The translations under genes were made by a program, and so were the position numbers. From the sequence record OR670491: a stretch of 64,000 bases of DNA. The stretch is one strand, 5' to 3'. Below are positions 18,377-31,773 of the stretch, piece by piece. Every line of letters starts with the position of its first letter. Within the stretch, counting starts at the first letter, position 1. Below the pieces are notes generated by a model. The model did no database searches. It saw only the letters and a program-made list of their open reading frames with translations, and was not told the origin of the DNA. The stretch comes from Escherichia phage vB_EcoM_JNE01.

Positions 18377-18457
18377 CAGTATTCAGTACTACATGATGGT
18401 CTTCATCCTCCTGGGGTAACATAGTGAAGGTTATGATGGCAGTACTGAATACTCCAA
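18377..18457. repeat. 13-bp inverted repeat agtattcagtact / agtactgaatact flanking about 55 bp
   Basis: read directly from sequence. Confidence 0.5.
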
Positions 18458-18479
18458 ACTCAAGATGGATTAAGGGTGT

Positions 18480-18665
18480 AGTACTGACGGATTTTGGGTG
18501 TAGTTACCCTGGATGGATTTTGGACGTAGATATGTCTAGCCCTCCAGAAGTCTGGAAGTAAAGATGGCTATCCATCTAGACGGCTAAACGGCTAGATTTC
18601 TGGATGGCTGGACGTTTGGACGGCTAAACGGCTAAACGGCTAAACGGCTAAACGTCTGGATGTAT
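18480..18665. repeat. iteron-like cluster: TGGATGG / GGACG units, palindrome agatggctatccatct, and ggctaaacg tandem repeat (x4-5)
   Basis: cggctaaacggctaaacggctaaacggctaaacg at about 18620-18655; several tggatgg copies upstream and downstream. Confidence 0.6.
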
Positions 18666-18897
18666 GGATGGCTAAATCAAAATTTTATTTTGTTTTTTCC
18701 AATAGTTCCCCTACCGCGTGGGGATAGTTTCCCCGCAGTATCTGGTGTTAGATTTTTCTGAATCTGGAATCATTATCTTATAAACTGGGGGCAATGTCAA
18801 CGGCCTGGACGGATATTTTTAAAAATTTTTTCAGTACTGAATTTTGGGCGTAACTATGCACCCGGTGGGCTTGAGTCTTTCTCGACTTGATGGAACT

Positions 18898-18925
18898 ATT
18901 ATACAGTACTGAAAAAATAAAGCAA
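18898..18925 (-). promoter_or_regulatory. minus-strand sigma70-type promoter (TTGCTT-N16-TATAAT) reading into a CCCACCGGGTGC box
   Basis: reverse complement reads attgctttattttttcagtactgtataat; box at about 18864-18880 lies about 25 nt downstream on minus strand. Confidence 0.4.
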
Positions 18926-19290
18926 TACCCTGGAAGCAAAAAAGTTTTAATTAATTTGCTTGCTATCCTGGGCCGGACTATGGTACTATATTTCAGTACT
19001 GAGAAAGTGCGTTTACCTGCTAGGGTGCGGGAGTGTATCCTTTTTTTATATCTTGAATTTTGGACGGATCTTCCCACCCCCTGGGGTATCCGCTTTCTCG
19101 CGTCTATGTAGTAATTATACGCTTTTTCAGGATCAAGTCAATACCTAAAAACAAAATAATTGAAAATAATTTAACGCGTTTAAACGGCCCGTAACGCCCT
19201 GGAATGATTAGAATGGTGCAAATGTATAGCTTAGGTGTATTAATGCGTTAGAATGCGTCTGAGGCCGTTTTATGGGGTGTAGTAGTGATT

Positions 19291-19470
19291 TGGTTGATTC
19301 AGTACTGAATAATAGTACTCCTATATAGAAAGATAGTTCCCCTGGATTGATTCAGTACTGAATGATAGTACTGAATAATAGTACTCCTATATAGAAAGAT
19401 AGTTCCCCTGGATTGATTCAGTACTGAATGATAGTACTGAATAATAGTTCCCCTATATAGAAAGAAAACT
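19291..19470. repeat. tandem direct repeat, about 66-bp unit x about 2.5 (gattcagtactgaatgatagtactgaataatagtactcctatatagaaagatagttcccctggatt)
   Basis: near-perfect copies read directly; the minus-strand ORF 19299..19502 with internally repeated peptide is an artefact of this repeat. Confidence 0.7.
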
Positions 19471-19496
19471 ATTTTAAAAGTATTTGTAGAAAGTAC

Positions 19497-19556
19497 TTGC
19501 ACAGTACTGATAAAAGCGTATAATGTTTTACATCGAGAGCGGGAACTCTTCCCGCT
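19497..19556 (+). promoter_or_regulatory. early promoter (TTGCAC-N16-TATAAT) + 5' GC-rich stem-loop (agcggga...tcccgct)
   Basis: first copy of the recurrent promoter/5'-hairpin module. Confidence 0.6.
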
Positions 19557-19579
19557 ACACTTTAAGAGAGATTAATACG

Positions 19580-19942
19580 ATGGCGACTCAAATCACTAAA
19601 ATCATTGCTAACCTGGTTAACTTCCGCGACGATATGAAAGATCTTCCGGCGGCAACGGTTAAAACTCACATTGACGCATACCGCGAACTGATTAAAATGC
19701 TGCCGCTTAAGCGTGAACAATACGCCGCCACCGTGATGCTTGATGCGATGATCCATAAGATGATCGCCAGTGATTTAACGATGGCTTATCAGTATATGGG
19801 TGAATTGTTCGCGGTGTATAGTAAACCAGTACCAGGAATGGAAAGTACAGAAGTATTACACGGTTTAAATTTAAAACAAGATGCATGGGATAATATGCCT
19901 CGTTTCCTGGTATGGGCTGACAGTGGCAAAATTTACGAATAA
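19580..19942 (+). CDS. hypothetical early protein
   Basis: track ORF starts at 19523 inside the promoter; ATG MATQITK preceded by AAGAGAG RBS is at 19580. Confidence 0.55.
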   Translation: MATQITKIIANLVNFRDDMKDLPAATVKTHIDAYRELIKMLPLKREQYAATVMLDAMIHKMIASDLTMAYQYMGELFAVYSKPVPGMESTEVLHGLNLKQDAWDNMPRFLVWADSGKIYE

Positions 19943-19955
19943 GTTAAAAATTAGT

Positions 19956-20014
19956 TTGACAGTACTGAATAAAAGCGTATAATGTTTTACATCAGGTGGG
20001 GAATAGTTCCCCAC
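19956..20014 (+). promoter_or_regulatory. early promoter (TTGACA-N16-TATAAT) + 5' stem-loop (gtgggga...tccccac)
   Basis: read directly; module immediately upstream of gene 20035. Confidence 0.6.
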
Positions 20015-20034
20015 TATATAAGAGGATTAAAAAA

Positions 20035-20274
20035 ATGGCTAAATCAAAAATGTTCTTAGGTCACAAAAATAAAACTCATTGGAATGTAAGCCTTTGGATT
20101 AATAACGATGAGGGATTGTATCGGTTGGCCCAGGACTTTATTAACGATAGCACTAATCGCAATGATGCGGCCCGTCATATGATGTTATTTTTAGAACAGA
20201 CTGGACAAGATAAAACACCGGACGGATTCAAATATAGCACTACTGCGATCCGTGCGGCAATGGTAGGAATGTAA
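20035..20274 (+). CDS. hypothetical early protein (paralogue of 22076..22315)
   Basis: start MAKSKMF after GAGG RBS; shares GHKNKTHWNVSLWINN...TPDGFKYSTTAIRAAMVGM with 22076..22315. Confidence 0.6.
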   Translation: MAKSKMFLGHKNKTHWNVSLWINNDEGLYRLAQDFINDSTNRNDAARHMMLFLEQTGQDKTPDGFKYSTTAIRAAMVGM

Positions 20275-20360
20275 TAGAATATATTTAAAGTACTATCATT
20301 TTTTTGCGATAGTACTTTATAATAGTGTTTTATTCATACACCAACGATAAGGGCAACAGC

Positions 20361-20627
20361 ATGAATATTAAGTATTTTGCGACGCGTGAACAAGCTCGGA
20401 TCGCCGCTCGCCAGGACGGGGCAACGTTTAAAGATATGGGCGTACAATCGGAACGTGGTAAACGTTGGGCCATTGTAAAGCGTAGTACCGCCAGATCATT
20501 ACAGTACTGGTTAGCGGCCTTAAAAAGTCCCGATAGTGTATCGCGTCGAGTGGTAGAAATAAAGCTCGACCGAAAGGGCAACCGCGTGACCGTGTACCGT
20601 ACTAAAAAGATAGCAGTACTTGAATAA
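20361..20627 (+). CDS. hypothetical early protein (paralogue of 32830..33225)
   Basis: shares FATREQAR...TFKDMG...GKRWA...RKGNRVTVY with 32830..33225; internal ATG of track ORF chosen. Confidence 0.5.
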   Translation: MNIKYFATREQARIAARQDGATFKDMGVQSERGKRWAIVKRSTARSLQYWLAALKSPDSVSRRVVEIKLDRKGNRVTVYRTKKIAVLE

Positions 20628-20633
20628 AAAGTA

Positions 20634-20700
20634 CTTGCAAACTATGTTTAATGGCGTATAATGTTTTACATCGAGAGCGGGAACTCTTCCCGCCTATAAC
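20634..20700 (+). promoter_or_regulatory. early promoter + 5' stem-loop (agcgggaactcttcccgc)
   Basis: acttgcaaactatgtttaatggcgtataat then hairpin. Confidence 0.6.
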
Positions 20701-20714
20701 CTGGAGTAATAAAA

Positions 20715-20945
20715 ATGACTAATATGTATATGACTGAAGTTAAAACCGTAAAAGATACTACCACGAATAAAACTACTTACTTACAGCGGATCTGCGGTGT
20801 ATGGCAACGTATCAGCAAATCAAAGTACTTTAAATTAACATCATATGCAAATCGTTCGGATTCATTCAGTACTGAAATAAAAGGTAATAAAGTACACCAA
20901 TACGGCACTTATTATTATTACAGCCTGGACGCGATTGCAGTATAA
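20715..20945 (+). CDS. hypothetical early protein
   Basis: ORF from track with GGAG RBS. Confidence 0.5.
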   Translation: MTNMYMTEVKTVKDTTTNKTTYLQRICGVWQRISKSKYFKLTSYANRSDSFSTEIKGNKVHQYGTYYYYSLDAIAV

Positions 20946-20977
20946 GCAGTTTACAAATCTTTACAATTGCCGGTATT

Positions 20978-21005
20978 GACTTATTTTGTCAGTACTGGCA
21001 TAATG
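20978..21005 (+). promoter_or_regulatory. promoter (TTGACT-N17-CATAAT with upstream TG) reading into the CCCATAGGGTGC box
   Basis: ttgacttattttgtcagtactggcataat; box at about 21031. Confidence 0.5.
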
Positions 21006-21009
21006 TATT

Positions 21010-21165
21010 CATTGGCAGATAAGCCGTAGCCCATAGGGTGCGGGAGTGTATCTATAGAAAAATTAGTTTAGTATAGTTACAATTGTGCACCCGGTGGGTT
21101 AGCTGTTGTCATGGGGTATATTATGCCAGTACTTGATAATTCTGTCAATACTTTTTTTTTACTAT
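21010..21165. ncRNA. candidate convergently transcribed non-coding locus (plus- and minus-strand promoters facing each other across inverted CCCAYMGGGTGC boxes)
   Basis: plus promoter at 20978-21005; minus promoter at 21120-21148; no ORF; boxes at about 21031 and 21090 form an imperfect long inverted repeat; T9 run at about 21155. Confidence 0.3.
21120..21148 (-). promoter_or_regulatory. minus-strand promoter (TTGACA-N17-CATAAT)
   Basis: reverse complement reads ttgacagaattatcaagtactggcataat. Confidence 0.45.
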
Positions 21166-21189
21166 TCAGTACTGAAAACTATTTTTAAA

Positions 21190-21345
21190 AAGTACTTGCA
21201 AACTATGTTTAAAGGCGTATAATGTTTTACATCAGGACGGGGAACGAAATAAGTAACTTCCCGTTAAGTAGCCCAGGAGTAAGGCACACGAAAAACTCCC
21301 CTGATAAAATAGTTTGACAAATGTTTTTAAAAGCGTATAATACTT
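21190..21345 (+). promoter_or_regulatory. tandem early promoters separated by a conserved about 90-nt leader (caggacggggaacgaaataagtaac...aaaaactcccctgataaaatagtttgacaa)
   Basis: two TTGxxx-N16-17-TATAAT promoters; the leader between them recurs at about 31632-31760 and partially at about 23925-24010. Confidence 0.5.
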
Positions 21346-21373
21346 ACATCAACTACTGAATGAGGGTTACAAA

Positions 21374-21985
21374 ATGAAAACTATCACTACTACTACTTTC
21401 GTTATGGATTTTTCTGAATTGAACGCAGAACAACAAACGTCAGCTATCGAACTGGTTCGGGATCGTGAGCGTTCATGTGAGGATAATTTCTTTGCTGAGG
21501 GCGTTATCGAGTACTATAAAGAAACAGTACTACCAGAATACGGCATAGATGAAGCTGAATTGCAATACAGTGGTTTTTGGTCGCAAGGTGACGGTGCATC
21601 AATCAGTACTGACAGCGTGGACGCAGTGAAGTTTTTACGCAAGATTAAAGCGTTAACGAAATATCGTTCTATCCGTCACTTGTTGAATGAAGATGATTTG
21701 GCAATGAGTGTAGAACGTTCACACTCTCGCTACGCACACGAAAACACGGTAAGCGGGTACATTGAATCGGCTTACACTGATTTAACCGCAAAACAAGAAA
21801 CGTTAGTTAATGAGCTTGAGGAACTACTCACTGATACTATTCGTGAATTGTCCCGCAAGTTGTACCGTGATTTAGAGAATGCATATGAGGATCAATTCAC
21901 TACTGAAAACATTACGGCACTGATTGAGGGTAACGAATATCAATTCAATGTTATTGATGGCGTAGTGGAATCAATCGAATATTAA
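21374..21985 (+). CDS. hypothetical acidic protein
   Basis: 203-aa ORF with GAGGG RBS; strongly acidic composition. Confidence 0.55.
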   Translation: MKTITTTTFVMDFSELNAEQQTSAIELVRDRERSCEDNFFAEGVIEYYKETVLPEYGIDEAELQYSGFWSQGDGASISTDSVDAVKFLRKIKALTKYRSIRHLLNEDDLAMSVERSHSRYAHENTVSGYIESAYTDLTAKQETLVNELEELLTDTIRELSRKLYRDLENAYEDQFTTENITALIEGNEYQFNVIDGVVESIEY

Positions 21986-22075
21986 TTTAAAAAGTACTTG
22001 CAAACTAAGTTTAAAAGCGTATAATACTTTATATCGAGGCGGGGAGTGGTTCCCCGCTCAAACGAGGATTTAAAA

Positions 22076-22315
22076 ATGGCTAGTACTAAAACTTACAACG
22101 GACACAAAAACAAAACTCATTGGAATGTAAGCCTTTGGATTAATAACGGTGAGTCATTGTATCGGCTTGCTCAAAGTTGCATCGCACAAAGTAGAACTAA
22201 AGATATTGCTGCGGAATGTATGTACCGCAGATTAAAAGCCAACGGTACTACTACAACGCCGGACGGCTTTAAGTATAGCACTACTGCGATCCGTGCTGCA
22301 ATGGTTGGAATGTAA
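22076..22315 (+). CDS. hypothetical early protein (paralogue of 20035..20274)
   Basis: start MASTKTY after promoter/hairpin module; conserved block shared with 20035..20274. Confidence 0.6.
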   Translation: MASTKTYNGHKNKTHWNVSLWINNGESLYRLAQSCIAQSRTKDIAAECMYRRLKANGTTTTPDGFKYSTTAIRAAMVGM

Positions 22316-22372
22316 TATTCAGTACTGAGATAATGGCGGGTAATAGTTCCCGCCTTTACTGAGGGTTATCTA

Positions 22373-22633
22373 ATGAGTAAAGTAATTAGCTATACAGCAC
22401 TAAGCAAGACATTATCTATTAGCCAGTGCACCGATGGTTATTGGCTATTTGATGAAACGCGTGGCATGAATTTAGCGATGCGTGCAAAAACTGCTGAGGC
22501 GGCGTATATTCAAGCACTGGAATACTACCAGGAACGTTTAAAGGAAGTAGAAGAAGATTATAAAAGCCTCAAAGCGAAAGTAGATCATTTCGTCGGTCAA
22601 TTCAACGAGGAAGACGACGACAAACAATATTGA
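22373..22633 (+). CDS. hypothetical early protein
   Basis: ORF from track; upstream hairpin gcgggtaatagttcccgc. Confidence 0.5.
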   Translation: MSKVISYTALSKTLSISQCTDGYWLFDETRGMNLAMRAKTAEAAYIQALEYYQERLKEVEEDYKSLKAKVDHFVGQFNEEDDDKQY

Positions 22634-22719
22634 AAAAGTACTTGCAATTAGTTTTCAGTACTGTATAATGGTTTACATCAAAGGGAGAAATGGTTCTCCC
22701 TGGTAATGAGGAAAATAAA

Positions 22720-22941
22720 ATGGCTAATATCACTACTCTTTCCCAACTGGAAGCACTGGTGAAATCTATGCGGGAACATGCCGACAAAATCGGCGTACAA
22801 GATCCAGCCGTTTGCTTCTGCGACGAATTGAATGATGATACCCTGGTAATAGCAGAAGTCCAGGACGTTTCTAACTATTCCTCGCGTTACACTGGCGGCG
22901 TAGCAAATAAAGGCGACTTCTGTTTATACCTTACAAAATAA
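22720..22941 (+). CDS. hypothetical early protein
   Basis: start MANITT after promoter + gggagaaatggttctccc hairpin; track ORF starts upstream at 22690. Confidence 0.55.
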   Translation: MANITTLSQLEALVKSMREHADKIGVQDPAVCFCDELNDDTLVIAEVQDVSNYSSRYTGGVANKGDFCLYLTK

Positions 22942-22944
22942 CAA

Positions 22945-23046
22945 CGCGGGGAGATAATAACTCCCCGTTACTTTTTCAGTACTGAATCATTTAATAGACG
23001 GATCTCGGCACCCGGTGGGTTAGTGACTGTTTCGTCTTGATGTAGT
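22945..23046 (-). ncRNA. candidate minus-strand small RNA with CCCACCGGGTGC box, ending at a bidirectional hairpin
   Basis: minus-strand promoter at 23048-23076; no ORF; hairpin ggggag-ataataa-ctcccc at about 22947-22968 also terminates plus-strand gene 22720..22941. Confidence 0.3.
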
Positions 23047-23047
23047 A

Positions 23048-23076
23048 ATTATGCCAGTACTGGATGCACTTGTCAA
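23048..23076 (-). promoter_or_regulatory. minus-strand promoter (TTGACA-N17-CATAAT with upstream TG)
   Basis: reverse complement reads ttgacaagtgcatccagtactggcataat. Confidence 0.5.
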
Positions 23077-23184
23077 CAACTATTTTTCAAATACTTTTTA
23101 TTAAAATACTTGCAATTAGTTTTTAAACGCGTATAATGTTTTGCATAGGGGGAGCGGTTCCCCTGGTAACTAAGGAATAATAAA

Positions 23185-23421
23185 ATGCTTGAACAAATCA
23201 AATCAACGTCTGCGAATGTAACGGGAACGGTATCACACTTTACTAGTGATGAATCGCGTGGTGTTCCTTATTGTGCTGTACATGTAAACACTGATGGCAA
23301 CTACTGGTTTACGGTTTACGGATCATATTCATTTGGACGGCCAGGGCATCAAAAAATTCTGGATAAAGTACAACCAACGGGTAAAAATATCACTGCCGAA
23401 ATGTTTTATAAAAAATCATAA
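23185..23421 (+). CDS. hypothetical early protein
   Basis: ORF from track, preceded by promoter + ggggagcggttcccc hairpin. Confidence 0.55.
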   Translation: MLEQIKSTSANVTGTVSHFTSDESRGVPYCAVHVNTDGNYWFTVYGSYSFGRPGHQKILDKVQPTGKNITAEMFYKKS

Positions 23422-23505
23422 AGTACTTGCAATTAGTTTTTAGTACTGTATAATATTTTACATCGCAAGGGGAAACGGTTTCCCCTGGTAACTAAGGATA
23501 ATCAA

Positions 23506-23805
23506 ATGAAAGTTGCAATCATCGCCCTGGCTTTATCTGTATCGTCTTTCGCTGTTAACGCTTCCGTTGATGTACCGCGTGAAAAATTCATTCAGTGCAC
23601 TGTTGCAATGACTAACGAGGAAACGGCTGAGATTGTTACCAAATCCCTGGAACTGGCCCCTGCAATGTTTGCTAATGGCCCGTACCATGAAGAAGATGAT
23701 CAGGGTAGCACGACCATCTATTACGATGCAAAAAGTAAACGCGGTTCAGTTACTGTAATGGATACTGAGAAAGTTACATTCACGGGAGTAATTAATTGTT
23801 TTTAA
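23506..23805 (+). CDS. secreted or periplasmic hypothetical protein (N-terminal signal peptide)
   Basis: MKVAIIALALSVSSFAVNA-SVD: basic start, hydrophobic core, AxA-type cleavage motif. Confidence 0.6.
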   Translation: MKVAIIALALSVSSFAVNASVDVPREKFIQCTVAMTNEETAEIVTKSLELAPAMFANGPYHEEDDQGSTTIYYDAKSKRGSVTVMDTEKVTFTGVINCF

Positions 23806-23823
23806 TGAAGTACTGAATCATAA

Positions 23824-23850
23824 GCCCACTATAAGAAGTGGGCTTTTTTT
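23824..23850 (+). terminator. rho-independent terminator
   Basis: gcccact-ataagaa-gtgggc followed by T7. Confidence 0.65.
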
Positions 23851-24035
23851 ATTGTAGTACTGAATACTTTAAAAATAGTTTTGAAATAGTAGTTGACATT
23901 ACCAGGGAAAGGCGTAGAATGTATTACATCAGGACGGGGAACACTAAGTAGACCGCCAGTAAGTCGAACGAAAAACTGGACACGACCTGGAAACTTTGAT
24001 AAACTAACTTACACTTTAATTGAGGAATTAAAAAA

Positions 24036-24515
24036 ATGGCAAATGTAAAATCATTCTTTAAAGCACTGGTATCTTCTGACGTATCTATCGCCGCTGAATT
24101 GCTGGCTGACCTGGATAATGATACCATGAAAGCAGTACGCAATAATTTTAATATGGCGTACAGTGCAGCAAAAGAACTGCAAGCCAAAAAGGTAGCAGAA
24201 CTGGAAGCGGCAAAGGCAGAACGTGAAGCAGAACTGCAAGCAACAATCGAAAGCATCCAGGCGGCGGTAAGTGGATTGGATATCGAGATCGTAACCGATA
24301 TGGCACATAAAGCCCTAGCTGCAAAATACGGTGAAGTAAAAGCGGTTAAAGAAAAGAAATGGATTCAGGACCGCGTTAACGTAGTACTTGACAACGGGGA
24401 AGAATATCTTATTCCTGTACGCGGTAACTGCATTGCCGTAGTACTGGACGCGATTAACTCCAGTGGTATGACACGCGAGGAATGGATCGAAGCTCATCGC
24501 AAAGTTGAAGCATAA
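24036..24515 (+). CDS. hypothetical protein with predicted coiled-coil segment
   Basis: 159-aa ORF; alanine/glutamate/lysine-rich heptad-like stretch AKELQAKKVAELEAAKAEREAELQA. Confidence 0.55.
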   Translation: MANVKSFFKALVSSDVSIAAELLADLDNDTMKAVRNNFNMAYSAAKELQAKKVAELEAAKAEREAELQATIESIQAAVSGLDIEIVTDMAHKALAAKYGEVKAVKEKKWIQDRVNVVLDNGEEYLIPVRGNCIAVVLDAINSSGMTREEWIEAHRKVEA

Positions 24516-24536
24516 CAATAAAAGTACTGAATCACT

Positions 24537-24563
24537 AGCCCACCTTAAACGGTGGGCTTTTTT
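24537..24563 (+). terminator. rho-independent terminator
   Basis: agcccacc-ttaaac-ggtgggct followed by T6. Confidence 0.65.
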
Positions 24564-24790
24564 GTGTTTATCGTTTACCAGGCCACCAGCACCGCCTAGA
24601 AACGATTCTAACGCATTAAACTGATTATCTGATGCATTGCCCTAGCTGGTGGCGTTAAGGCTGTAAGAACGCGATTGAGAGCGTTTAAAGTATTTTGCAA
24701 AAAGTAATAAAAAGTACTTGCACGATTAAGAGATTAGCGTATAATTAATTACATCAAGGCAAGACACCTTAACTAACTGAGGATATAAAG

Positions 24791-24943
24791 ATGAATACTT
24801 ATGACCTGGATTGTTTTACTTTACAAGTAATGTCAGTATGCAGTAAGAAAGATTGGTCATCAAAGGAATTTAAAGCAGTTATCGCGTGTGCAAAACACGG
24901 CAAGACTATCAATGAAACGGCATCAATCATTGATAAACTTTAA
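24791..24943 (+). CDS. small hypothetical protein (50 aa, below ORF-track cutoff)
   Basis: hand-translated ORF downstream of promoter aaaagtacttgcac...gcgtataat with GAGGA RBS. Confidence 0.4.
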   Translation: MNTYDLDCFTLQVMSVCSKKDWSSKEFKAVIACAKHGKTINETASIIDKL

Positions 24944-24951
24944 AAAATAGT

Positions 24952-24980
24952 TTGACAATAGTTTTAAGTACTGGCATAAT
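24952..24980 (+). promoter_or_regulatory. early promoter (TTGACA-N17-CATAAT with upstream TG)
   Basis: ttgacaatagttttaagtactggcataat. Confidence 0.6.
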
Positions 24981-25012
24981 ACATACATCAACTACTGAAT
25001 AGGAATTAAAAA

Positions 25013-25240
25013 ATGGCTATTATCATTACTCGCGTATCTGGTACTACTGGCAACGAACAAGTAGTTGCAGTCATTACCAACAAGGAAGGTGCGGAATTGC
25101 AAAATGCAATGAATACCTGGGCCGTTAATGAGTTCGGTCAGTGGGCAAGTGTAGCATACATTGAAACCTATCAAGTGCCGTCGATTAGTTTAACTGATTT
25201 GGGCGTTGAGCGTATCCTTTGCCTGGATGAATTAAATTAA
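25013..25240 (+). CDS. hypothetical early protein
   Basis: ORF from track; AGGAA RBS. Confidence 0.55.
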   Translation: MAIIITRVSGTTGNEQVVAVITNKEGAELQNAMNTWAVNEFGQWASVAYIETYQVPSISLTDLGVERILCLDELN

Positions 25241-25325
25241 AAAAGTACTTGCAAAGTAAATCGAATAAAGTATAATACATTACATCAAGGGGAGAAATGG
25301 TTCTCCCCACTACAAGGAAACTAAA

Positions 25326-25469
25326 ATGAAAACTTGTCAATGTGGTCATAAATCTATTACGGGTTTTAAGCGGGGCGTTGCTCTTTGCCAGTACCATTAT
25401 AATTTACAAGTATGGGGTAAAGAATGGGCCGACCAGGTGGAAGCAGCAAAGAAAGCAAAAAGTAAGTAA
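25326..25469 (+). CDS. small cysteine-containing hypothetical protein (47 aa)
   Basis: hand-translated ORF after promoter + ggggagaaatggttctcccc hairpin; CQCGH...CQYH pattern suggests possible metal binding. Confidence 0.4.
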   Translation: MKTCQCGHKSITGFKRGVALCQYHYNLQVWGKEWADQVEAAKKAKSK

Positions 25470-25557
25470 AATATTATCACAGTACTATTGACATAGTTTG
25501 ATAGTACTGGCATAATAGATTTTATCAAGACAACATATTAATTTAAGGAATACAAAA

Positions 25558-25881
25558 ATGGCTAAAACTATCATTAACACCGTTTCCCTGGCTGCAATCC
25601 GTGCAATCAATGTTGACGGTAAACGTTGGACTGATACATATGGCAATACTTATCATTCTTGTCATGTAAGCGTTGAACTGGATAACGGTTTGAATGATCT
25701 GGCGGTTGAATCATTTACTTATGGCTATGAAGATGCATATCAACAAACGGCGTTAGATCTATTAAAGGAATCAGTAGACGGGCTTAATACTGATGAAACC
25801 TCCCTTACTCGTTTGTGCAATGATCTTAATATCCCGTTGCATTGTACTGTACAGAATGTTAAACGCAAAAAAGATCTTTAA
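25558..25881 (+). CDS. hypothetical early protein (paralogue of 32407..32730)
   Basis: shares RWTD..GNTYHSC.VS...TFTYGY...VKRKKD with 32407..32730. Confidence 0.6.
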   Translation: MAKTIINTVSLAAIRAINVDGKRWTDTYGNTYHSCHVSVELDNGLNDLAVESFTYGYEDAYQQTALDLLKESVDGLNTDETSLTRLCNDLNIPLHCTVQNVKRKKDL

Positions 25882-25961
25882 TTAGCTTTACTTTATGCAG
25901 ATACTTTGATATAGTGTCTGCATAGGGGAAAGAAATTAAATTAACTTAAGAGGATCGTATA

Positions 25962-26231
25962 ATGAAAAATATCAGTACTTTAATCGATACAGGTACTCAT
26001 GTTCGTCGGTCTATGGTTGCAACCAGTACTACAAAACAAGTACCAAGCGGTTATCTTGTATTTGTGCACGATGGTAAACTCCTGGAACGTTCAATCAATT
26101 TTGATGTTAAAAACAATTGCCGTTTTATTATCTTTAAGCGTGAGCAATATAAAATTGATTTACCAGCAAAGCCCATAAGCGGGGCGTACAACGTGCAATC
26201 ATTGTTTGAACGTCAACCATACACCTATTAA
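25962..26231 (+). CDS. hypothetical early protein
   Basis: ORF from track with AAGAGGA RBS. Confidence 0.5.
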   Translation: MKNISTLIDTGTHVRRSMVATSTTKQVPSGYLVFVHDGKLLERSINFDVKNNCRFIIFKREQYKIDLPAKPISGAYNVQSLFERQPYTY

Positions 26232-26282
26232 TCAAAACATCGTTAGCGGTCGATTTAGGCCGCGTATATTGGGGATTATACC

Positions 26283-26555
26283 ATGAACGTTAATCAAGTA
26301 CTGAATGAGATCGAAAGCATCATTAAACCAATGAAACGCATTGATGCTATGTTAACACCGGAAGAATGCCGCCTTTATGAGCGTTACAGCGTCGAACAAG
26401 TCCAGGCAATGGCTATGGCTACCCCAGCCGTTAAACCGCCTGAGAATGCGTTACAGGACGTTACAGGGGATTATATCATCAATCCAGTACTAGGGAAGAT
26501 GGCTGCAATCACCGAAGATCAACAAGATTACTTAAGTCAGTACTTAAAAGGTTAA
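26283..26555 (+). CDS. hypothetical early protein
   Basis: ORF from track. Confidence 0.45.
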   Translation: MNVNQVLNEIESIIKPMKRIDAMLTPEECRLYERYSVEQVQAMAMATPAVKPPENALQDVTGDYIINPVLGKMAAITEDQQDYLSQYLKG

Positions 26556-26560
26556 TTAAT

Positions 26561-26770
26561 ATGCTTACTGTACAGGATAAGATCGACATCTTAAAGGTTA
26601 ATATGTATGTGATTGATGCAGTACCTGGTAAAGTATTTGCATACGATGACAGTACTGTAAGCGATTTCTACTATAGCCAGGACGTGGGGGATCTTTCTGT
26701 ACAGTCGGTTATTGAAAACGTAGTTAATGCAGCGTATGAGCATTTACTTTCAAATAGTACTTGCAATTAG
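26561..26770 (+). CDS. hypothetical early protein
   Basis: ORF from track, closely following previous gene. Confidence 0.45.
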   Translation: MLTVQDKIDILKVNMYVIDAVPGKVFAYDDSTVSDFYYSQDVGDLSVQSVIENVVNAAYEHLLSNSTCN

Positions 26771-26839
26771 TTTTTAAACGCGTATAATGTTTTACATGAA
26801 GGGGAGAAATGATTCTCCCCACTAATTAAGGAATATGAA

Positions 26840-26986
26840 ATGAAAGCATCAAAAAAGAGTAATACTAAGAAAGCACGTTCAACCTTAGATGGGGTATTCC
26901 CTTTACGTTTCGTTGATGAAGTGGTGTCCTACCCGCCGGGCCTTACTCCTGAGATGGTAGAAAGTTTGCGTAAATCTAAAAAATAG
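26840..26986 (+). CDS. small basic hypothetical protein (48 aa)
   Basis: hand-translated ORF after promoter + ggggagaaatgattctcccc hairpin and AAGGAA RBS. Confidence 0.4.
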   Translation: MKASKKSNTKKARSTLDGVFPLRFVDEVVSYPPGLTPEMVESLRKSKK

Positions 26987-27067
26987 TACTTGCAATTAGT
27001 TTTTAGTACTGTATAATAGTTTACATGAAGGGGAGAAATGATTCTCCCCAATAACAGGAGAATCAAA

Positions 27068-27220
27068 ATGAAACAATACAACGCTCGGTTTGATGTTACT
27101 ATCGGTAACGGCAAAGGTCAATTCTCTTTCAGTACTCGCAAAAGTTATACAGAAAACTTCCTGCGTAATTGTGCACTGACCGCCGCTCAAATTAAACATT
27201 ACTTTCAGGCTAAAAAATGA
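27068..27220 (+). CDS. small hypothetical protein
   Basis: start MKQYNAR after promoter/hairpin and AGGAG RBS; track ORF begins upstream at 27038. Confidence 0.5.
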   Translation: MKQYNARFDVTIGNGKGQFSFSTRKSYTENFLRNCALTAAQIKHYFQAKK

Positions 27221-27306
27221 AAACATTAGCTTACTATAGTTCGGCCCTGGTCGGTGCATTGATCGCGGCGTTGTTAGTAACCTATCTATTCTTTATGGTG
27301 ATTTAA
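27217..27306 (+). CDS. small hydrophobic peptide (29 aa), possible membrane peptide
   Basis: hand-translated ORF MKTLAYYSSALVGALIAALLVTYLFFMVI; ATGA-coupled on both sides. Confidence 0.3.
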   Translation: MKTLAYYSSALVGALIAALLVTYLFFMVI

Positions 27307-27450
27307 ATGAATCCAACAGGTTTAAACTATAAAAGTTGTTCGGCGTTTACGAAAGCAAATAAAGCGAATGCACGTAAAGCGAAAGTACAAGAATACATCA
27401 AGCAAGGCATGACGCGAAAGGCGGCGATTCTAAAAGCTAAAAATAAATGA
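27307..27450 (+). CDS. small lysine-rich basic protein (47 aa)
   Basis: hand-translated ORF coupled to upstream peptide. Confidence 0.3.
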   Translation: MNPTGLNYKSCSAFTKANKANARKAKVQEYIKQGMTRKAAILKAKNK

Positions 27451-27560
27451 AAAAAGTGGTTGACTCCGGTCAGCCATTTTGCTATTATATATTCATTGAG
27501 AGATAGCTCACTAGCCCACAGGGTGCATAAGTGTATCTATTATATGAGTATTGAGTACTG
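27451..27560 (+). promoter_or_regulatory. repeat module: hairpin with embedded TTGACT -35, TATTAT -10, CCCACAGGGTGC box
   Basis: one of four full copies (also about 31468-31575, 34741-34850, 37487-37625). Confidence 0.5.
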
Positions 27561-27671
27561 AAAACTATTTTAAAAGTATTTGTAGAAAGTACTTGCAAAC
27601 TATCTCAATAAGCGTATAATGTTTTACATCGAAAGGGGAAACGGTTTCCCCTGATAATAAGGAAACAAATC

Positions 27672-28013
27672 ATGACTATCTCAATTGCTCAATCTAACTT
27701 TGAAAACGAAATCATCGCCCAGGCACTGCGTTTAAATGATGGTCGGGCCGAAATTAATTACGGTTTCAATTCAGGCGGTTGTGAAAAATATCAGTACTTT
27801 GTAACGGCTGATGGCGGTGTCCTGGGTATCAATACAGTTATTGTAAACATCCAAAAAATTAATTTCAATGATCCAGACGATAGCCAGTTTTACATCACTG
27901 GCGTAGACGTGAACTATGAGGATGACTCACTAACTGATGATCACACTGGTGAGAAGTTAGAGAGTGCATACGGTGAAGATGATTATCAGTCAGTACCGGA
28001 AGATTTTGAATAA
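27672..28013 (+). CDS. hypothetical acidic protein
   Basis: ORF from track after promoter + aggggaaacggtttcccct hairpin; acidic C-terminal third. Confidence 0.55.
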   Translation: MTISIAQSNFENEIIAQALRLNDGRAEINYGFNSGGCEKYQYFVTADGGVLGINTVIVNIQKINFNDPDDSQFYITGVDVNYEDDSLTDDHTGEKLESAYGEDDYQSVPEDFE

Positions 28014-28027
28014 TATTAAAAAAATAG

Positions 28028-28086
28028 TTTGACAATAGATTATAGTACTGTATAATAGTTTACATCAAGGGGAGAAAAACTTCTCC
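28028..28086 (+). promoter_or_regulatory. early promoter (TTGACA-N16-TATAAT) + 5' stem-loop (ggggagaaaaacttctcccc)
   Basis: read directly. Confidence 0.6.
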
Positions 28087-28110
28087 CCACTAACAGAGAG
28101 AGAAAACAAA

Positions 28111-28323
28111 ATGGCTAATATCTGCACTGTACTGAAAAATGCAAAACAAGTTTTATTTTCTGATCACGATCATTTAAACAAGGATATTACTGGCGTTCGG
28201 AATATCAAAGATGTAAAAAGTGTTATGGGTATCTATTGCAATATGAAACGTGTTGGAACGTTCGGCGACAAAGTACTATACCAGGCAGGGGATTACAATT
28301 TTACACTGACTATCATTAACTAA
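28111..28323 (+). CDS. hypothetical early protein
   Basis: ORF from track. Confidence 0.55.
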   Translation: MANICTVLKNAKQVLFSDHDHLNKDITGVRNIKDVKSVMGIYCNMKRVGTFGDKVLYQAGDYNFTLTIIN

Positions 28324-28415
28324 AAATATATTACCAGTACTATTAAATCTATTGACAACGTTTGATAGTACTGACATAATAACTTTTATCAACTACACTA
28401 CTAAGGAATTAAAAA

Positions 28416-28595
28416 ATGGCTATCATCGCAAAAACTGAAATCGTTGGTCTGGATTCTATCATCATGACGTTTGAAGATCAAAAAGGTATGTATGTAGTTT
28501 CATATGGTGATTATGTTCGGGAGTATGAAACGGTAGACGAAGCCTTTGAAAGTTATATTCGCCAGGTGAATAAAGCATACGACGACTACCGCTAA
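28416..28595 (+). CDS. small hypothetical protein (59 aa)
   Basis: hand-translated ORF after ttgacaacgtttgatagtactgacataat promoter and AAGGAA RBS. Confidence 0.45.
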   Translation: MAIIAKTEIVGLDSIIMTFEDQKGMYVVSYGDYVREYETVDEAFESYIRQVNKAYDDYR

Positions 28596-28685
28596 AATAT
28601 ATTACCAGTGCTATTGACAAAGTTTGATAGTACTGTATAATAAGTTTTATAAACAGTAGTTAACTTAACCTAAGAGAGAAATAAA

Positions 28686-28829
28686 ATGATCGCACTGGAT
28701 TCATTCATCGACGCAGTACTGGCAAAAACTGGCGAGGATCTGACCGCAGAACAATACGCGATGATCGAGCAATGTCAGCAAAACGGTAAATCGGTGAAAG
28801 ATACTGTTAAGATTATCCGCAAGATGTAA
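28686..28829 (+). CDS. small hypothetical protein (47 aa)
   Basis: hand-translated ORF after ttgacaaagtttgatagtactgtataat promoter. Confidence 0.45.
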   Translation: MIALDSFIDAVLAKTGEDLTAEQYAMIEQCQQNGKSVKDTVKIIRKM

Positions 28830-28836
28830 GATTATA

Positions 28837-28866
28837 GCCCACTGGTTAACGCTGGTGGGCTTTAAT
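28837..28866 (+). terminator. hairpin terminator containing a Chi octamer
   Basis: gcccac-tggttaacgctg-gtgggc then TTTAATCCTTT; GCTGGTGG lies in the loop/3' arm. Confidence 0.45.
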
Positions 28867-28928
28867 CCTTTACCCTATACAATGCCAGTACTCAACCGTT
28901 TATCTCGTTAGAATGCGTTACAGGACGT

Positions 28929-29132
28929 TTGACAATGATTAGCATGAAATCAGTACAAAAACAAATAGAAACATTATCAAAAATTAAACGTAAACAGTAC
29001 TCGTTAGAATATACAATCAATGGTAACTATCATCTAATGAAAGAGAATAATTTTATCGTCATTGATGAATCATTGCAAGTTATTAGTATAGTACTGAAAG
29101 CATTAATCAATGACAGAAAAAAATTAAAATAA
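28929..29132 (+). CDS. hypothetical protein (uncertain start)
   Basis: track ORF with TTG start and no clear RBS. Confidence 0.3.
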   Translation: MTMISMKSVQKQIETLSKIKRKQYSLEYTINGNYHLMKENNFIVIDESLQVISIVLKALINDRKKLK

Positions 29133-29136
29133 TCTA

Positions 29137-29165
29137 TTGACAATATCCTCCAGTACTGGCATAAT
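29137..29165 (+). promoter_or_regulatory. promoter (TTGACA-N17-CATAAT) heading a long leader with CCCATAGGGTGC box
   Basis: ttgacaatatcctccagtactggcataat; about 300-nt leader before gene 29462. Confidence 0.55.
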
Positions 29166-29221
29166 ACTTACATCAAGACGAGAACGTCGCTAACCCATAG
29201 GGTGCACAAATGTAACTATAT

Positions 29222-29300
29222 AATATCGATCAATAAATGATCAAAAAAGTACTGGATCAATTTAGCATAAGGCGTATAATTCTGATCAATTCTTGATCAA
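29222..29300. promoter_or_regulatory. cluster of five GATC sites (tgatcaa-type repeats) around a TATAAT element upstream of the TraR/DksA-like gene
   Basis: GATC at about 29228, 29239, 29255, 29284, 29295, as cgatcaat / tgatcaaa / ggatcaat / tgatcaat / tgatcaaa. Confidence 0.5.
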
Positions 29301-29461
29301 AGGCAATATACGCAGTTGAATTTATATAGACAGTACAAAGGCGTTACTATCCGTGGTAATGCTGGTGGATATGTAGTATCATATGGTTTGAATAAGATAA
29401 ACACTAGTAGTATTATTGTAGCATTACAGTACTATAGTATTTTTATAATGAGGTTAAAATA

Positions 29462-29719
29462 ATGGCAGTAGGATACGCGAAAGACGGGGCCGAACAAGAC
29501 GAGATTCACGCAGTGATTCAGGCCGCCGTTAACCACGCTAGAAAGCAAATTAACGCACAAAGAGAATCACTGGTACATTGCCTCGACTGCGGCGATAAAA
29601 TCCCTGAGAATCGACGCCAGGCCGTTATAGGGTGCATGTATTGTATTACTTGCCAGGAGGATCATGATAGTACTTTTAAAAGAGATCCGCGTAATTGTTG
29701 GCATAGATCTATGAGATAA
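29462..29719 (+). CDS. TraR/DksA-family C4 zinc-finger protein (putative RNA polymerase-binding regulator)
   Basis: CLDCGDKIPENRRQAVIGCMYCITCQ matches the TraR/DksA zinc-finger pattern CxxC...IPxxR...CxxCQ; 85 aa; GAGG RBS. Confidence 0.65.
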   Translation: MAVGYAKDGAEQDEIHAVIQAAVNHARKQINAQRESLVHCLDCGDKIPENRRQAVIGCMYCITCQEDHDSTFKRDPRNCWHRSMR

Positions 29720-29725
29720 AAAGTA

Positions 29726-29753
29726 TTGACAGTACTGAAAGATAGTGTATAAT
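29726..29753 (+). promoter_or_regulatory. early promoter (TTGACA-N16-TATAAT)
   Basis: ttgacagtactgaaagatagtgtataat. Confidence 0.6.
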
Positions 29754-29782
29754 GTTTTATATCTTAACTGAGGATAGTAATC

Positions 29783-30139
29783 ATGGGAATACAACATATC
29801 ACGCGTACTACTGACAATGGCGAGATCACTGGTTATCAGGTACAGGGCAAAGTAGCACAATTGCAGTACTGGTTTGTTAAACGTGGAATCATTGCACCGG
29901 ATCTTGATTATGACCGTGTAGCGTTTATTGATTCTCTTTATGTTGATCCTGATAGTCGGGGCAATGGTGAAGGTAACGAATTAATGAATGCCTTTATTGA
30001 TGCCGCCGATGATTCAGATTGTATCATCTTAGAATGCGATACGGGAGAAGATAACGCCTTTAATCTTAAAGAATGGTACGAAGGTTTCGGATTCGAGGTA
30101 CTGATCGATAGTGAATATCCTATCATGATTTTATCATAG
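29783..30139 (+). CDS. hypothetical early protein
   Basis: ORF from track with GAGGA RBS. Confidence 0.55.
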   Translation: MGIQHITRTTDNGEITGYQVQGKVAQLQYWFVKRGIIAPDLDYDRVAFIDSLYVDPDSRGNGEGNELMNAFIDAADDSDCIILECDTGEDNAFNLKEWYEGFGFEVLIDSEYPIMILS

Positions 30140-30217
30140 TACTTGCATTTAGTTTTCAGTACTGTTATAGTACTTGCATCAAGGGGAAACATCTTCCCCT
30201 ACTAAGAGGAAATAAAA

Positions 30218-30406
30218 ATGGAAAACTTATCAAGTATTTTAGTACAAGATGATTTCGGTAATCCTGGAAGTGCTATCATTGTTCGGGGCAATAAAGCAAC
30301 GTTTGTTATTGCTGGTGGACCCGTACAGCGTAGCATTAAAAATAATGCTGTTACCATTAATAATGTACGCTATCGCTTAGATAAAGAATTAATTCATAAA
30401 CTGTAA
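30218..30406 (+). CDS. small hypothetical protein
   Basis: ORF after promoter + aggggaaacatcttcccct hairpin. Confidence 0.5.
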   Translation: MENLSSILVQDDFGNPGSAIIVRGNKATFVIAGGPVQRSIKNNAVTINNVRYRLDKELIHKL

Positions 30407-30433
30407 TATTAATTTAATAGAGGATAACAATAA

Positions 30434-30757
30434 ATGTACATTCATACTACTATCACAAAGGAAGTCCGTTGCCAGTTCGAAAGTATTCCGGGCGTATGTT
30501 TCATCACTGGTACGTTTTCCCCTGGTGATCGTGATAATCCAGTACTGTTACAATTACGCCATCCATCATGGGATAAAGCATTTGATCTACCGTTGAATGA
30601 ATTCGCAACTACTGCTGAAAAGTACATTAAAAATATTCGCGAGAATGATCGACTATTCATTAATGCTTTTAGTGATGCCGCGTTAAGTGAGATCCATGCT
30701 GTATTGGTTGCAATCATGGAATCAATGGAGAAAACTATATTCAAACAAGGTGAATAA
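30434..30757 (+). CDS. hypothetical early protein
   Basis: ORF from track with GAGGA RBS. Confidence 0.55.
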   Translation: MYIHTTITKEVRCQFESIPGVCFITGTFSPGDRDNPVLLQLRHPSWDKAFDLPLNEFATTAEKYIKNIRENDRLFINAFSDAALSEIHAVLVAIMESMEKTIFKQGE

Positions 30758-30763
30758 AAACTA

Positions 30764-30822
30764 TTGACAATGCAATCCAGTACTGTATAATAGTTTACAT
30801 GAAGGAGAGAAATGATTCTCCC
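30764..30822 (+). promoter_or_regulatory. early promoter (TTGACA-N16-TATAAT) + 5' stem-loop (gagagaaatgattctc)
   Basis: read directly. Confidence 0.6.
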
Positions 30823-30840
30823 CACTAAGAGGAAAGAAAA

Positions 30841-31053
30841 ATGCAAGGTCAACTAATCGTTCGTAAATGGTCTGATACTAACGAAAAACCGTGGGATGTA
30901 CAATACATCGCCCCAAATGGTGAATCCAGATATCAACCAGGTGTAACGCATAGTACTGAGCAATTCGCCGCCGCTCATCGCGAACGTCTGTTACAATCAA
31001 TGCAGCAAGGTTCCGGTGAAAAATTCATTCAGGATCATTGGCTGAAAGATTAA
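30841..31053 (+). CDS. hypothetical early protein
   Basis: ORF from track. Confidence 0.55.
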   Translation: MQGQLIVRKWSDTNEKPWDVQYIAPNGESRYQPGVTHSTEQFAAAHRERLLQSMQQGSGEKFIQDHWLKD

Positions 31054-31139
31054 AAAGTACTTGCACAGTACTGAATAAAGTGTATAATGTTTTATATCGG
31101 AAGGGGAATAGTTCCCCTCCGAACAAAGAGGAAAGTATA

Positions 31140-31313
31140 ATGGTCCAGGTAGAATTAACAGTACTGAAAGATCTGTTTTATCGGATTGGTACTACTGGCG
31201 AATATCCGAAGGGTGATAATGCAAAACTTTACGTATCACTCGACTTATGGCAACGCGAACAATTAGCAACGGCCTGGCGTAAAGGCAAAGCAGATAGCGA
31301 GGTGAAAGCATGA
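31140..31313 (+). CDS. small hypothetical protein
   Basis: track ORF 31038..31313 begins with TTG inside promoter; ATG MVQVELT after AGAGGAAAG RBS at 31140. Confidence 0.5.
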   Translation: MVQVELTVLKDLFYRIGTTGEYPKGDNAKLYVSLDLWQREQLATAWRKGKADSEVKA

Positions 31314-31459: not shown

Positions 31460-31467
31460 AAATAATT

Positions 31468-31760: not shown

Positions 31761-31773
31761 AGGAAACATAAAA

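Follow-up and report, generated by a model that had tools for sequence, protein, structure and literature searches.

A promoter-proximal RNA module repeated within the terminal repeat of Rak2-like jumbo phages: candidate genes for short early non-coding RNAs

The genome of Escherichia phage vB_EcoM_JNE01 (record OR670491) was analysed over a stretch of 64,000 nt, here called the window, which contains 11 copies of a ~50-nt module placed directly behind near-consensus promoters. The copies lie in a region of small plus-strand open reading frames (ORFs), each with its own near-consensus sigma70-type promoter. At the centre of the module is a 12-nt box, CCCAYMGGGTGC. A search allowing up to one mismatch gave nine matches, all of them exact, compared with 0.19 ± 0.46 expected from shuffled sequence. 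Exact boxes start at 21030, 27515, 29194, 31528, 34808 and 37553 on the plus strand and occupy 18858-18869, 21087-21098 and 23008-23019 on the minus strand. Two further copies are a degenerate one near 19020 (plus strand), which reads GCTAGGGTGCGGGAGTGTATCC and has lost the CCCA (covariance-model E = 0.2-0.5), and a divergent minus-strand module at 19058-19107 with the box CCCAGGGGGTGG at 19074-19085 (E ~1e-7, model R2). Two covariance models run with filters off over the full 64 kb brought the total to 11 modules, all within 18.8-37.6 kb, and no further module was found outside this interval. An initial annotation made from the sequence alone had listed about ten copies of the box. All ten are real and were placed within a few bases (nine exact, one degenerate), but the 19020 copy is degenerate and the divergent copy at 19058-19107 had been missed. 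The 12-mer itself is genuine, although it is only the centre of a longer module that has a covarying hairpin upstream and an alternative helix downstream.

In all 11 units the module starts 4-6 nt past a sigma70-type -10 hexamer, and the -35 and -10 hexamers match 9-11 of 12 consensus positions. The box lies 21-29 nt past the end of the -10 hexamer in every copy, which bears out its proposed position close behind a strong promoter. The minus-strand promoters put forward at 18898-18925, 21120-21148 and 23048-23076 are likewise near-consensus. No ORF of at least 45 aa that is in frame with a ribosome-binding site overlaps any module.

The first three units lie close together. Unit 1 (18842-18925, minus strand) has the promoter TTGCTT (18925-18920)-N16-TATAAT (18903-18898); its module (18891-18842; 47.4 bits, E = 5e-12) consists of an upstream hairpin, P2, with the sequence AGUC-GAGAAA-GACU, and a box at 18869-18858. 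The degenerate unit 2 (18960-19048, plus strand) follows a weak promoter, TTGCTA-N18-TACTAT (18960-18989), and its module at 18996-19044 gave E values of 0.5 and 0.22. A helix GGGUGC:GUAUCC at 19022-19041, corresponding to the downstream helix P4 described below and with U7 directly after it, was scored as an intrinsic terminator. Convergent with it is the divergent unit 3 (19058-19141, minus strand; promoter TTGACT-N16-TATAAT, 19141-19114), whose module (19107-19058) has the P2 hairpin CGC-GAGAAA-GCG and the box CCCAGGGGGUGG at 19085-19074 (E = 1e-3, and 36.9 bits with E = 1e-7 using model R2).

Units 4 and 5 form a second convergent pair. Unit 4 (20976-21057, plus strand) has the promoter TTGACT-N17-CATAAT (20976-21004) and a module at 21009-21057 with the P2 hairpin UGGC-AGAUAA-GCCG and a box at 21030-21041 (53 bits). 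Unit 5 (21071-21148, minus strand) has the promoter TTGACA-N17-CATAAT (21148-21120) and a short-form module without P2 (21115-21071; box 21098-21087; 28.7 bits, E = 4e-6). No ORF of at least 45 aa is present in 20946-21374, so the convergent arrangement without an intervening ORF stands as originally described. With boxes starting at 19019/19075 and 21030/21087, these are the two convergent pairs of the window; 7 of the 11 units are unpaired.

Unit 6 (22932-23076, minus strand) is the most similar to a small-RNA gene. The promoter TTGACA-N17-CATAAT (23076-23048) is followed by a module at 23041-22992 (P2 GAC-GAAACA-GUC; box 23019-23008; 55 bits), a spacer with CAGUACUG, a bidirectional terminator hairpin at 22967-22947 and a U-rich tail, giving a predicted RNA of ~105 nt. 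The hairpin had been noted as bidirectional, and the region 22946-22968 does score as a terminator on both strands. A clear 3′ end is seen for unit 6 (22947-22967) and for unit 2.

The remaining units are all on the plus strand and recur every 2-3 kb along the gene array. Unit 7 (27453-27542) has its -35 TTGACT (27460) inside a terminator-like hairpin at 27453-27480, the -10 TATTAT at 27483-27488 and a module at 27493-27542 (P2 UGAG-AGAUAG-CUCA; box 27515-27526; 64.6 bits). Unit 8 (29137-29221) has the promoter TTGACA-N17-CATAAT (29137-29165) and a module at 29172-29221 (P2 GACG-AGAA-CGUC; box 29194-29205), and lies upstream of a further promoter and ORFs. In unit 9 (31471-31555) the hairpin 31471-31498 contains the -35 TTGACT, the -10 TATTAT is at 31501-31506, and a short-form module (31511-31555; box 31528-31539) ends just before a Chi site at 31559. 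Unit 10 (34746-34835) has its -35 within the hairpin 34746-34773, the -10 TATTAT at 34776-34781 and a module at 34786-34835 (P2 UGAG-AGAUAA-CUCA; box 34808-34819; 64.3 bits). Unit 11 (37496-37580) is built in the same way, with the hairpin 37496-37523 containing the -35, TATTAT at 37526-37531 and a short-form module at 37536-37580 (box 37553-37564); a Chi site follows at 37611.

Units 7, 9, 10 and 11, which we call type A, are thus composite terminator/promoter elements: their -35 TTGAC forms the inner 5′ arm of a 12-bp terminator-like hairpin, an arrangement known from the PeSL repeats. The outer stem of this hairpin covaries in the window and across genera (GGGA/UCCC, GUGG/CCAU, GGGG/CCCC, AGUAC/GUACU). 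Units 1, 3-6 and 8 have no terminator hairpin at the -35. A promoter of type B (TTGACA-N17-CATAAT, spacer CAGTACTGG) also precedes ordinary genes at 24952, 25488 and 28352. There is thus nothing unusual about this class of promoter, behind which the module sits as a cassette. Two relatives carry annotated hypothetical coding sequences of 36-39 aa at the convergent pair/minus-strand promoter: A4_267 in phage A4 (L043, locus 2905-3021) and g05 in fEgEco12 (L049, 3278-3388). Both are probably mis-calls, as each lacks a ribosome-binding site and extends over promoter elements.

In order to define the module, 68 distinct copies with the exact box pattern were taken from IMG/VR and aligned with the window copies. 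A covariance model was seeded from 18 ungapped sequences and the copies were then realigned with it, since MAFFT alone misaligned P2; the alignment behind most of the counts given here was thus fitted to the P2/P3 model. Retrieval by exact pattern inflates the invariance of the box in the first 68 copies. However, ~20 further distinct copies found by the model in the same loci without a box constraint (88 distinct rows in total) retain CCC...GGGUG. The module is ~50 nt long and begins with a 5′ tail, CAU(U/A)G or AUCAAG. The optional hairpin P2 has a 4-5-bp stem and a purine-rich loop of 6-7 nt (AGAUAA, GCGAAA, GAGAAA, AGAACAA); the short form without P2 makes up about one-fifth of the copies. 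A YUAR linker joins P2 to P3, a 4-bp hairpin R-CCC / AYM / GGG-U, and P3 is followed by UGC, five purines and a segment U-S-Y-R-Y-Y-Y-R-U.

P2 is the best supported helix. At least 14 different stems occur, each self-complementary, among them UGGC/GCCG, UGAG/CUCA, GACG/CGUC, AGUC/GACU, GGAG/CUCC, AGCA/UGCU, ACCAC/GUGGU, ACAAA/UUUGU, AGACA/UGUCU, ACCG/CGGU and GCCA/UGGC. All four pairs vary on both sides, with 130 compensated cells in alignment A3 compared with 49 ± 5.5 after shuffling. In the same alignment P2 is 94% paired in register and 38-63% paired when the partner is slid; a hand-picked seed alignment behaved alike. An independent hairpin search gave a score of 9.24 versus 6.79 ± 0.37 for shuffled sequences, and mutual information showed no long-range signal besides P2. 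Pairs of the G·U type outnumber those of the A·C type by 15 to 1 in P2, so only the strand transcribed from the promoter is constrained to pair. Taken together with the fixed orientation of the box and a distance to the promoter that varies by 8 nt, this argues for an RNA element and not a dyad-symmetric duplex operator. The covariation thus indicates that the structure belongs to the transcribed sense strand, contrary to the possibility, raised at the outset, that the box is only a protein-binding operator.

In P3 the third pair is CG in 84 copies, UA in 2 and UG in 2, with two CCU..AGG double changes, and the flanking R:U pair is AU in 47 and GU in 46. The segment downstream of P3 can form an alternative helix, P4, between GGGUG(C) and positions +18 to +23. 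It has U or C opposite each G and A or G opposite the U; transversions are absent from +19 and +20, and +22 has a single one. All variation preserves pairing, and 89% of the cells are paired in register compared with 33-65% when slid by 1-3 columns, although this support is one-sided: the 5′ strand is invariant, and a helix derived from the consensus tends to beat slid versions. Because both use GGGU, P3 and P4 are mutually exclusive. They are nearly isoenergetic (mean -3.8 versus -2.9 kcal/mol), P4 being the better helix in 42 of 88 copies, and RNAalifold favours P2 together with P3. P4 followed by a U-run makes a true terminator in unit 2 and in two copies from relatives (L029:8950 and L016:3172). 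As a general intrinsic terminator P4 was rejected, since a U-rich tail follows it in just 9 of 87 copies. A -10-like stretch of the TATWAT type follows the module in about half of the copies.

Several other candidate features of the module were also rejected. Single folds made it plausible that the 5′ end and the 3′ segment close the module with a helix P1, but the energy of cognate combinations, -6.65 kcal/mol, was close to that of non-cognate ones (-6.34 ± 0.23 kcal/mol, z = -1.3). A pseudoknot between the P2 loop AGAUA and UAUCU is feasible in about one-third of the copies, and the 3′ segment is unchanged when the loop is GCGAAA or GAGAAA. A tiny ORF from RUG (+16), with the apparent frame RUG-UAU-CUA, does not survive in the UCC/UCU variants. 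If the conserved 3′ segment were an antisense seed, its complement would be the target, and this is not enriched in the window (43 versus 37 expected). By inspection only, none of the following fits consistently: a CsrA-type GGA loop or a Shine-Dalgarno-like GGAG (about half of the copies), a K-turn, an 11-nt receptor, and CRISPR-repeat, ToxI or retron a1/a2 mimicry.

The module is widespread among relatives of the phage. Positions 18.7-23.3 kb of the window are 88-97% identical to ~20 jumbo coliphages of the genus Asteriusvirus (121Q/PBECO4/G17 group, ~350 kb), which is part of the Rak2-like clade in the T4 superfamily. The covariance-model search with the box and its flanks, which had been suggested as a check, recovered 101 copies (88 distinct) in loci from ~12 Rak2-like genomes, and every relative sampled had the module. 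Members occur in putative RaK2-, GAP32-, CBB-, 121Q-, fHe-Yen9-04- and Serratia-phage-like genomes and in metagenomic relatives; true members were confined to contigs of 345-378 kb and to fragments that resemble these. They cluster in a single stretch of ~15-20 kb per genome, which in CBB is the 22.4-kb terminal repeat. In the relatives inspected a TTGAC-type -35 and a -10 precede the module, which starts 4-6 nt after the -10 (85 of 93 by regular expression, the remainder by eye). Among 93 distinct units the next feature is a convergent twin at one of three fixed spacings in 32 (34%), a terminator-like hairpin that would give RNAs of ~100 nt in 23 (25%) and the co-directional promoter of the following gene in 26 (28%); 12 have neither twin, terminator nor promoter. 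Unit orientation is independent of the flanking genes. Relatives hold 5-6 paralogous box-spacer-terminator units of ~100 nt each, and at one orthologous site the 5′ half of the module differs between relatives, as if swapped. Fur-box-like palindromes, GAATGATAATCATTC, lie exactly between the members of convergent pairs in relatives (L002:2816 and 8080, L005:1286, L008:344, L039:6091), and clusters of them adjoin such pairs at L005:912-1027, L002:8336-8365 and L030:2828-2857. These sites, found in relatives only and not in this window, hint at control by iron and Fur or at a Fur roadblock.

All 11 units of the window lie in what appears to be a terminal repeat. For phage fEgEco12 the termini were set by PhageTerm and restriction digests, with a direct terminal repeat of 20,993 bp (PMC13070987). 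Using megablast, position 1 of fEgEco12 corresponds to window position 17,757, and homology to the repeat extends through 38,850. This stretch (17757-38850) encloses all 11 units; the same 11 are found at 1,083-19,594 of the fEgEco12 repeat and none in the 3 kb that follow. Several other records begin within ~20 bp of window position 17,757, and sequence past 38,850 is unrelated. Judged by this homology, the window holds the entire ~21-kb direct terminal repeat, probably the part of the genome that enters the cell first. Since the units are inside a direct terminal repeat, the module set would be present twice per virion, as 22 copies. The region contains 23 terminator-like hairpins compared with 12.2 expected. 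Pfam matches among ten terminal-repeat ORFs comprised a DksA/TraR zinc finger, GNAT, DUF, and weak kinase and RNase H matches. The ORF for the DksA/TraR-type C4 zinc finger (29462-29719, Pfam E = 3.7e-9) and that for the GNAT acetyltransferase (29783-30139) are located just downstream of unit 8. A TraR-like factor that binds the secondary channel of RNA polymerase would fit an early programme for taking over the host polymerase.

Other features of this stretch were also recorded. Chi sites (GCTGGTGG) occur at 18247, 18358, 24645, 28851, 29361, 30311, 31559, 33913, 35810, 37387 and 37611, and the opposite orientation (CCACCAGC) at 18346 and 24583. All 13 fall in the stretch equivalent to the terminal repeat, the rest of the 64 kb having none, against an expectation of 0.2 per orientation. 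Eleven face RecBCD entering from the right end, and the first opposite one lies ~590 bp away from the left terminus as mapped. fEgEco12 shows the same pattern, and in other genera Chi falls within the promoter spacers of box units (TTGACAagCCACCAGC...GCATAAT). This placement suggests Chi-based protection or recombination of the ends of virion DNA. The hexamer AGTACT occurs 307 times in the window, most densely at 12-38 kb, compared with ~21.5 expected and 5-38 for palindromic hexamers of the same composition. It is found at fixed promoter positions, namely ~-60, fused to the -35 (AGTACTTGCA) and as the TG of an extended -10 (CAGTACTGGCATAAT), and in terminator stems too, and is probably the site of a DNA-binding regulator.

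Immediately inside the left terminus, 2 kb (17440-19520) are repeat-rich and have no convincing ORF. Tandem repeats there include five copies of GGCTAAAC at ~18585-18655, a GAATGATT-type repeat at ~17700-17745 and ~60-nt repeats at 19290-19470, and the stretch may hold packaging, injection or origin signals. After nearly every ordinary early promoter (..TATAATgttttacatc) the 5′ untranslated region has a hairpin GGGGA(A/G)-N4-7-(U)UCCCC just before the ribosome-binding site, with 26 sites in 19539-38125 (for instance 19998, 22039, 23469, 27635 and 35221). By their sequence these are a second family of conserved RNA hairpins, distinct from the box module. At 18700-18745 the sequence AGTTCCCCTACCGCGTGGGGATAGTTTCCCCG has the same flanks, AGUUCCCC...GGGGAUA, as the type I-E CRISPR repeat of E. 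coli. With so many GGGGA/UCCCC hairpins in the region, the likeness may be fortuitous.

We favour the reading, to which we assign a probability of about 0.4, that the units are small genes, each for a short non-coding RNA made very early, and that the conserved hairpin/GGGUGC core of these RNAs serves as a handle for a conserved partner. The modules show several attributes of a small-RNA gene: their own promoter at a fixed distance, a covariation-supported structure and no coding potential. The units would almost always be independent tiny transcription units and not the only promoter of a gene. Host sigma70 RNA polymerase would transcribe them from the phage terminal repeat, and the RNAs would be made in bulk right after DNA entry. 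Transcripts would end at a terminator (~100 nt), facing a convergent twin, or against or into the next promoter. The P3/GGGUGC core would be recognised by a partner that is conserved either among the Enterobacterales hosts or among the phages themselves, and the RNAs would titrate or recruit that partner in trans, as decoy or recruiter. P2 may be a dispensable protective or spacer hairpin at the 5′ end, and the P3/P4 alternative a built-in toggle that adjusts how far the core is exposed. What we infer in this scheme is that the RNAs are expressed and abundant, that a partner exists and which way the effect goes. The proposal of non-coding RNA genes or antisense pairs in the initial annotation survives in its first half, since most units are stand-alone, act at the RNA level and have their own promoter; an antisense relation applies to only about one-third of units, and ~28% sit just upstream of a gene's own promoter.

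Some observations weigh against this reading. Transcription start sites, RNA ends and stability are all deduced from sequence. The ~28% of units without a terminator would read into the next promoter and gene, and in at least one relative (L039:12600) the module is directly ahead of a Shine-Dalgarno sequence and ATG, which fits a role in cis. P3 is nearly invariant, so that support for its pairing comes from few changes, and single-sequence folds are not unusually stable (z ~ -1). No RNA-binding domain was found by Pfam among the ten terminal-repeat ORFs.

The main rival is a cis-acting element of the nascent RNA. HK022 put suppresses pausing and termination of the transcribing RNA polymerase in cis via the beta′ zinc-binding domain. 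Like put or the lambda nut/Nun system, the module, alone or with a phage or host factor, might alter pausing, termination or read-through of its own polymerase, P3 and P4 forming a switch of the antiterminator/terminator type. Such a role would suit a module that begins, as putL does, at the predicted transcription start, and the surface of host RNA polymerase as the target would explain invariance across hosts. The excess of terminator-like hairpins in the region, the recurrence of plus-strand units along the gene array, the use of GGGUG by both of two exclusive helices and the true terminators formed by P4 in unit 2 and in the two copies from relatives all agree with it, as does the -10-like stretch after about half of the copies, a feature also proposed for putL. 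Most units, however, are not ahead of dependent genes: separate promoters serve the genes downstream, a twin faces 34% of the units and 25% lead directly into a terminator. P4 seldom has a U-rich tail, the hairpins of the module are far smaller than those of put, no boxA-like sequence is near any of the 11 units, and no Rfam family is similar in sequence. We therefore regard this rival as doubtful, though a serious one.

Rather unlikely, and slightly more so, is a bolder idea that spans both readings: a protein-free or single-factor RNA device that would manipulate a core machine of the host within the first minutes. It might be a decoy, the 22 transcribed copies per virion soaking up a host RNA-binding protein of defence or regulation, or a put-like RNA riding host RNA polymerase with the P3/P4 toggle as its on/off state.

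An improbable alternative is a 5′ stabiliser or processing signal, in which P2/P3 would shield the 5′ end from RNase E and RppH or mark a site of cleavage by an endoribonuclease of host or phage (RegB-like at GGAG, or RNase III on convergent duplexes). The hairpin does lie 3-5 nt from the predicted 5′ end, the purine-rich segment after UGC often contains GGAG, and read-through of convergent pairs would form perfect duplex RNA (-54 kcal/mol, z = -5.7). But a generic stabiliser would not require a GGGUGC invariant across genera, P2 is absent from ~20% of copies and GGAG from about half, and the ordinary early mRNAs here carry a different 5′ hairpin, GGGGAA..UUCCCC.

Still less credible is an element acting as DNA, either an operator at +16 to +30 or a PeSL-like composite terminator/promoter repeat that supplies homology for modular recombination. 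CCC-N3-GGG has dyad symmetry, the type-A units are composite cassettes like the PeSLs of T4-like phages (PMC4122927), and the 5′ half of the module was swapped at one orthologous position. These points are outweighed by the P2 stems, whose many unrelated sequences would be unreadable for a DNA-binding protein, by the sense-strand bias of their G·U pairs and by the single orientation and variable distance of the box; moreover, identity is limited to ~12-25 nt, which is short for homologous exchange.

The initial annotation had envisaged regulatory switches or control of a replication primer. Antisense pairs of that kind, working like ColE1 RNA I/RNA II on a primer or as a bistable switch, are very improbable: the convergent pairs are real, are conserved in other genera at fixed spacings and lie in the terminal repeat beside the 2-kb non-coding repeat-rich stretch, but two-thirds of units are unpaired, the 11 copies are dispersed, the pairs overlap 3′-to-3′ whereas the ColE1 antisense RNA lies within the 5′ part of the primer, the complement of the 3′ segment is not enriched, and no origin-like feature was seen at the pairs, in an examination that included no systematic scan for iterons, DnaA boxes or AT-rich unwinding elements.

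Rak2-like jumbo phages have genomes of ~350 kb in which ~80% of genes are of unknown function, and several are candidates for phage therapy; to our knowledge, essentially no regulatory RNA has been characterised in them. The module family is clade-wide and multi-copy, is linked to the strongest host-type promoters and lies on what is probably the first-entering DNA, which makes it a strong candidate for a role in early take-over or in anti-defence that is exerted by RNA rather than protein. It is also a compact object for experiments, with 50 nt, two or three helices and an invariant hexamer, and it provides a new covariance model for searching phage genomes. Only one put-like system is known so far, and the module would add a second if it acts on RNA polymerase.

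Known RNAs offer partial parallels. Searches of the window with ARAGORN found no tRNA or tmRNA, and no Rfam 15 family reached its gathering score in the 64 kb, 18700-23300 giving chance matches only (E of at least 1.9, elsewhere). The units are nowhere annotated as RNA or regulatory features in eight public records examined, and full-text searches of the literature found neither the module nor a transcriptome of an Asteriusvirus or close relative. The Pseudomonas jumbo phage PA5oct, from the same wider clade, also has non-coding units in a long terminal repeat: ncRNA001 and ncRNA002 are defined by RNA-seq, are 236-451 nt long and are abundant throughout infection (PMC7318152). Homology to them was rejected, as the best covariance-model match in the first 30 kb of PA5oct was not significant (E = 0.14). 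Features of a lambda-type nut site are missing: the initial 200 nt of each of the 11 predicted transcripts contain no boxA (CGCUCUUUA-like), GCTCTT, CTCTTTA or CTCTTA, and CGCTCTT(T)A does not occur in the window.

Lambda OOP, P22 sar and P1/P4 C4/CI RNA are, like the predicted transcripts, short and non-coding, with strong promoters, sometimes Rho-independent terminators and sometimes a convergent or antisense arrangement. Those RNAs, however, are single-copy, pair extensively with a defined antisense target and are in Rfam, whereas the module family is multi-copy, shares a structured core, matches nothing in Rfam and has no evident target. The PeSLs of T4-like phages share with our units a repeated terminator hairpin and early sigma70 promoter between small early genes, and the swapping of cassettes (PMC4122927, PMC2839356). 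A PeSL consists of terminator and promoter; here the distinctive part is the structured transcribed module, which also stands behind promoters without a terminator hairpin. The putL site of HK022 is just downstream of PL, is ~70 nt long and folds into two stem-loops (PMC9378689). Both put and, by prediction, the module are two-stem-loop phage RNAs of tens of nucleotides that start at an early sigma70 promoter (PMC9378689), and in each case a partner surface conserved in the host would account for the conservation. Yet put, at ~70 nt, has long irregular stems and a triple helix and occurs twice per genome upstream of operons, while the module, at ~50 nt, has hairpins of 4-5 bp, is present in 11 copies in each terminal repeat and in most cases does not precede promoter-less genes. 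The comparison was one of layout, size and stems, and no sequence relationship was detected. The module thus appears to be a transcribed element without a described counterpart, whose features would place it with the small or leader RNAs of phages.

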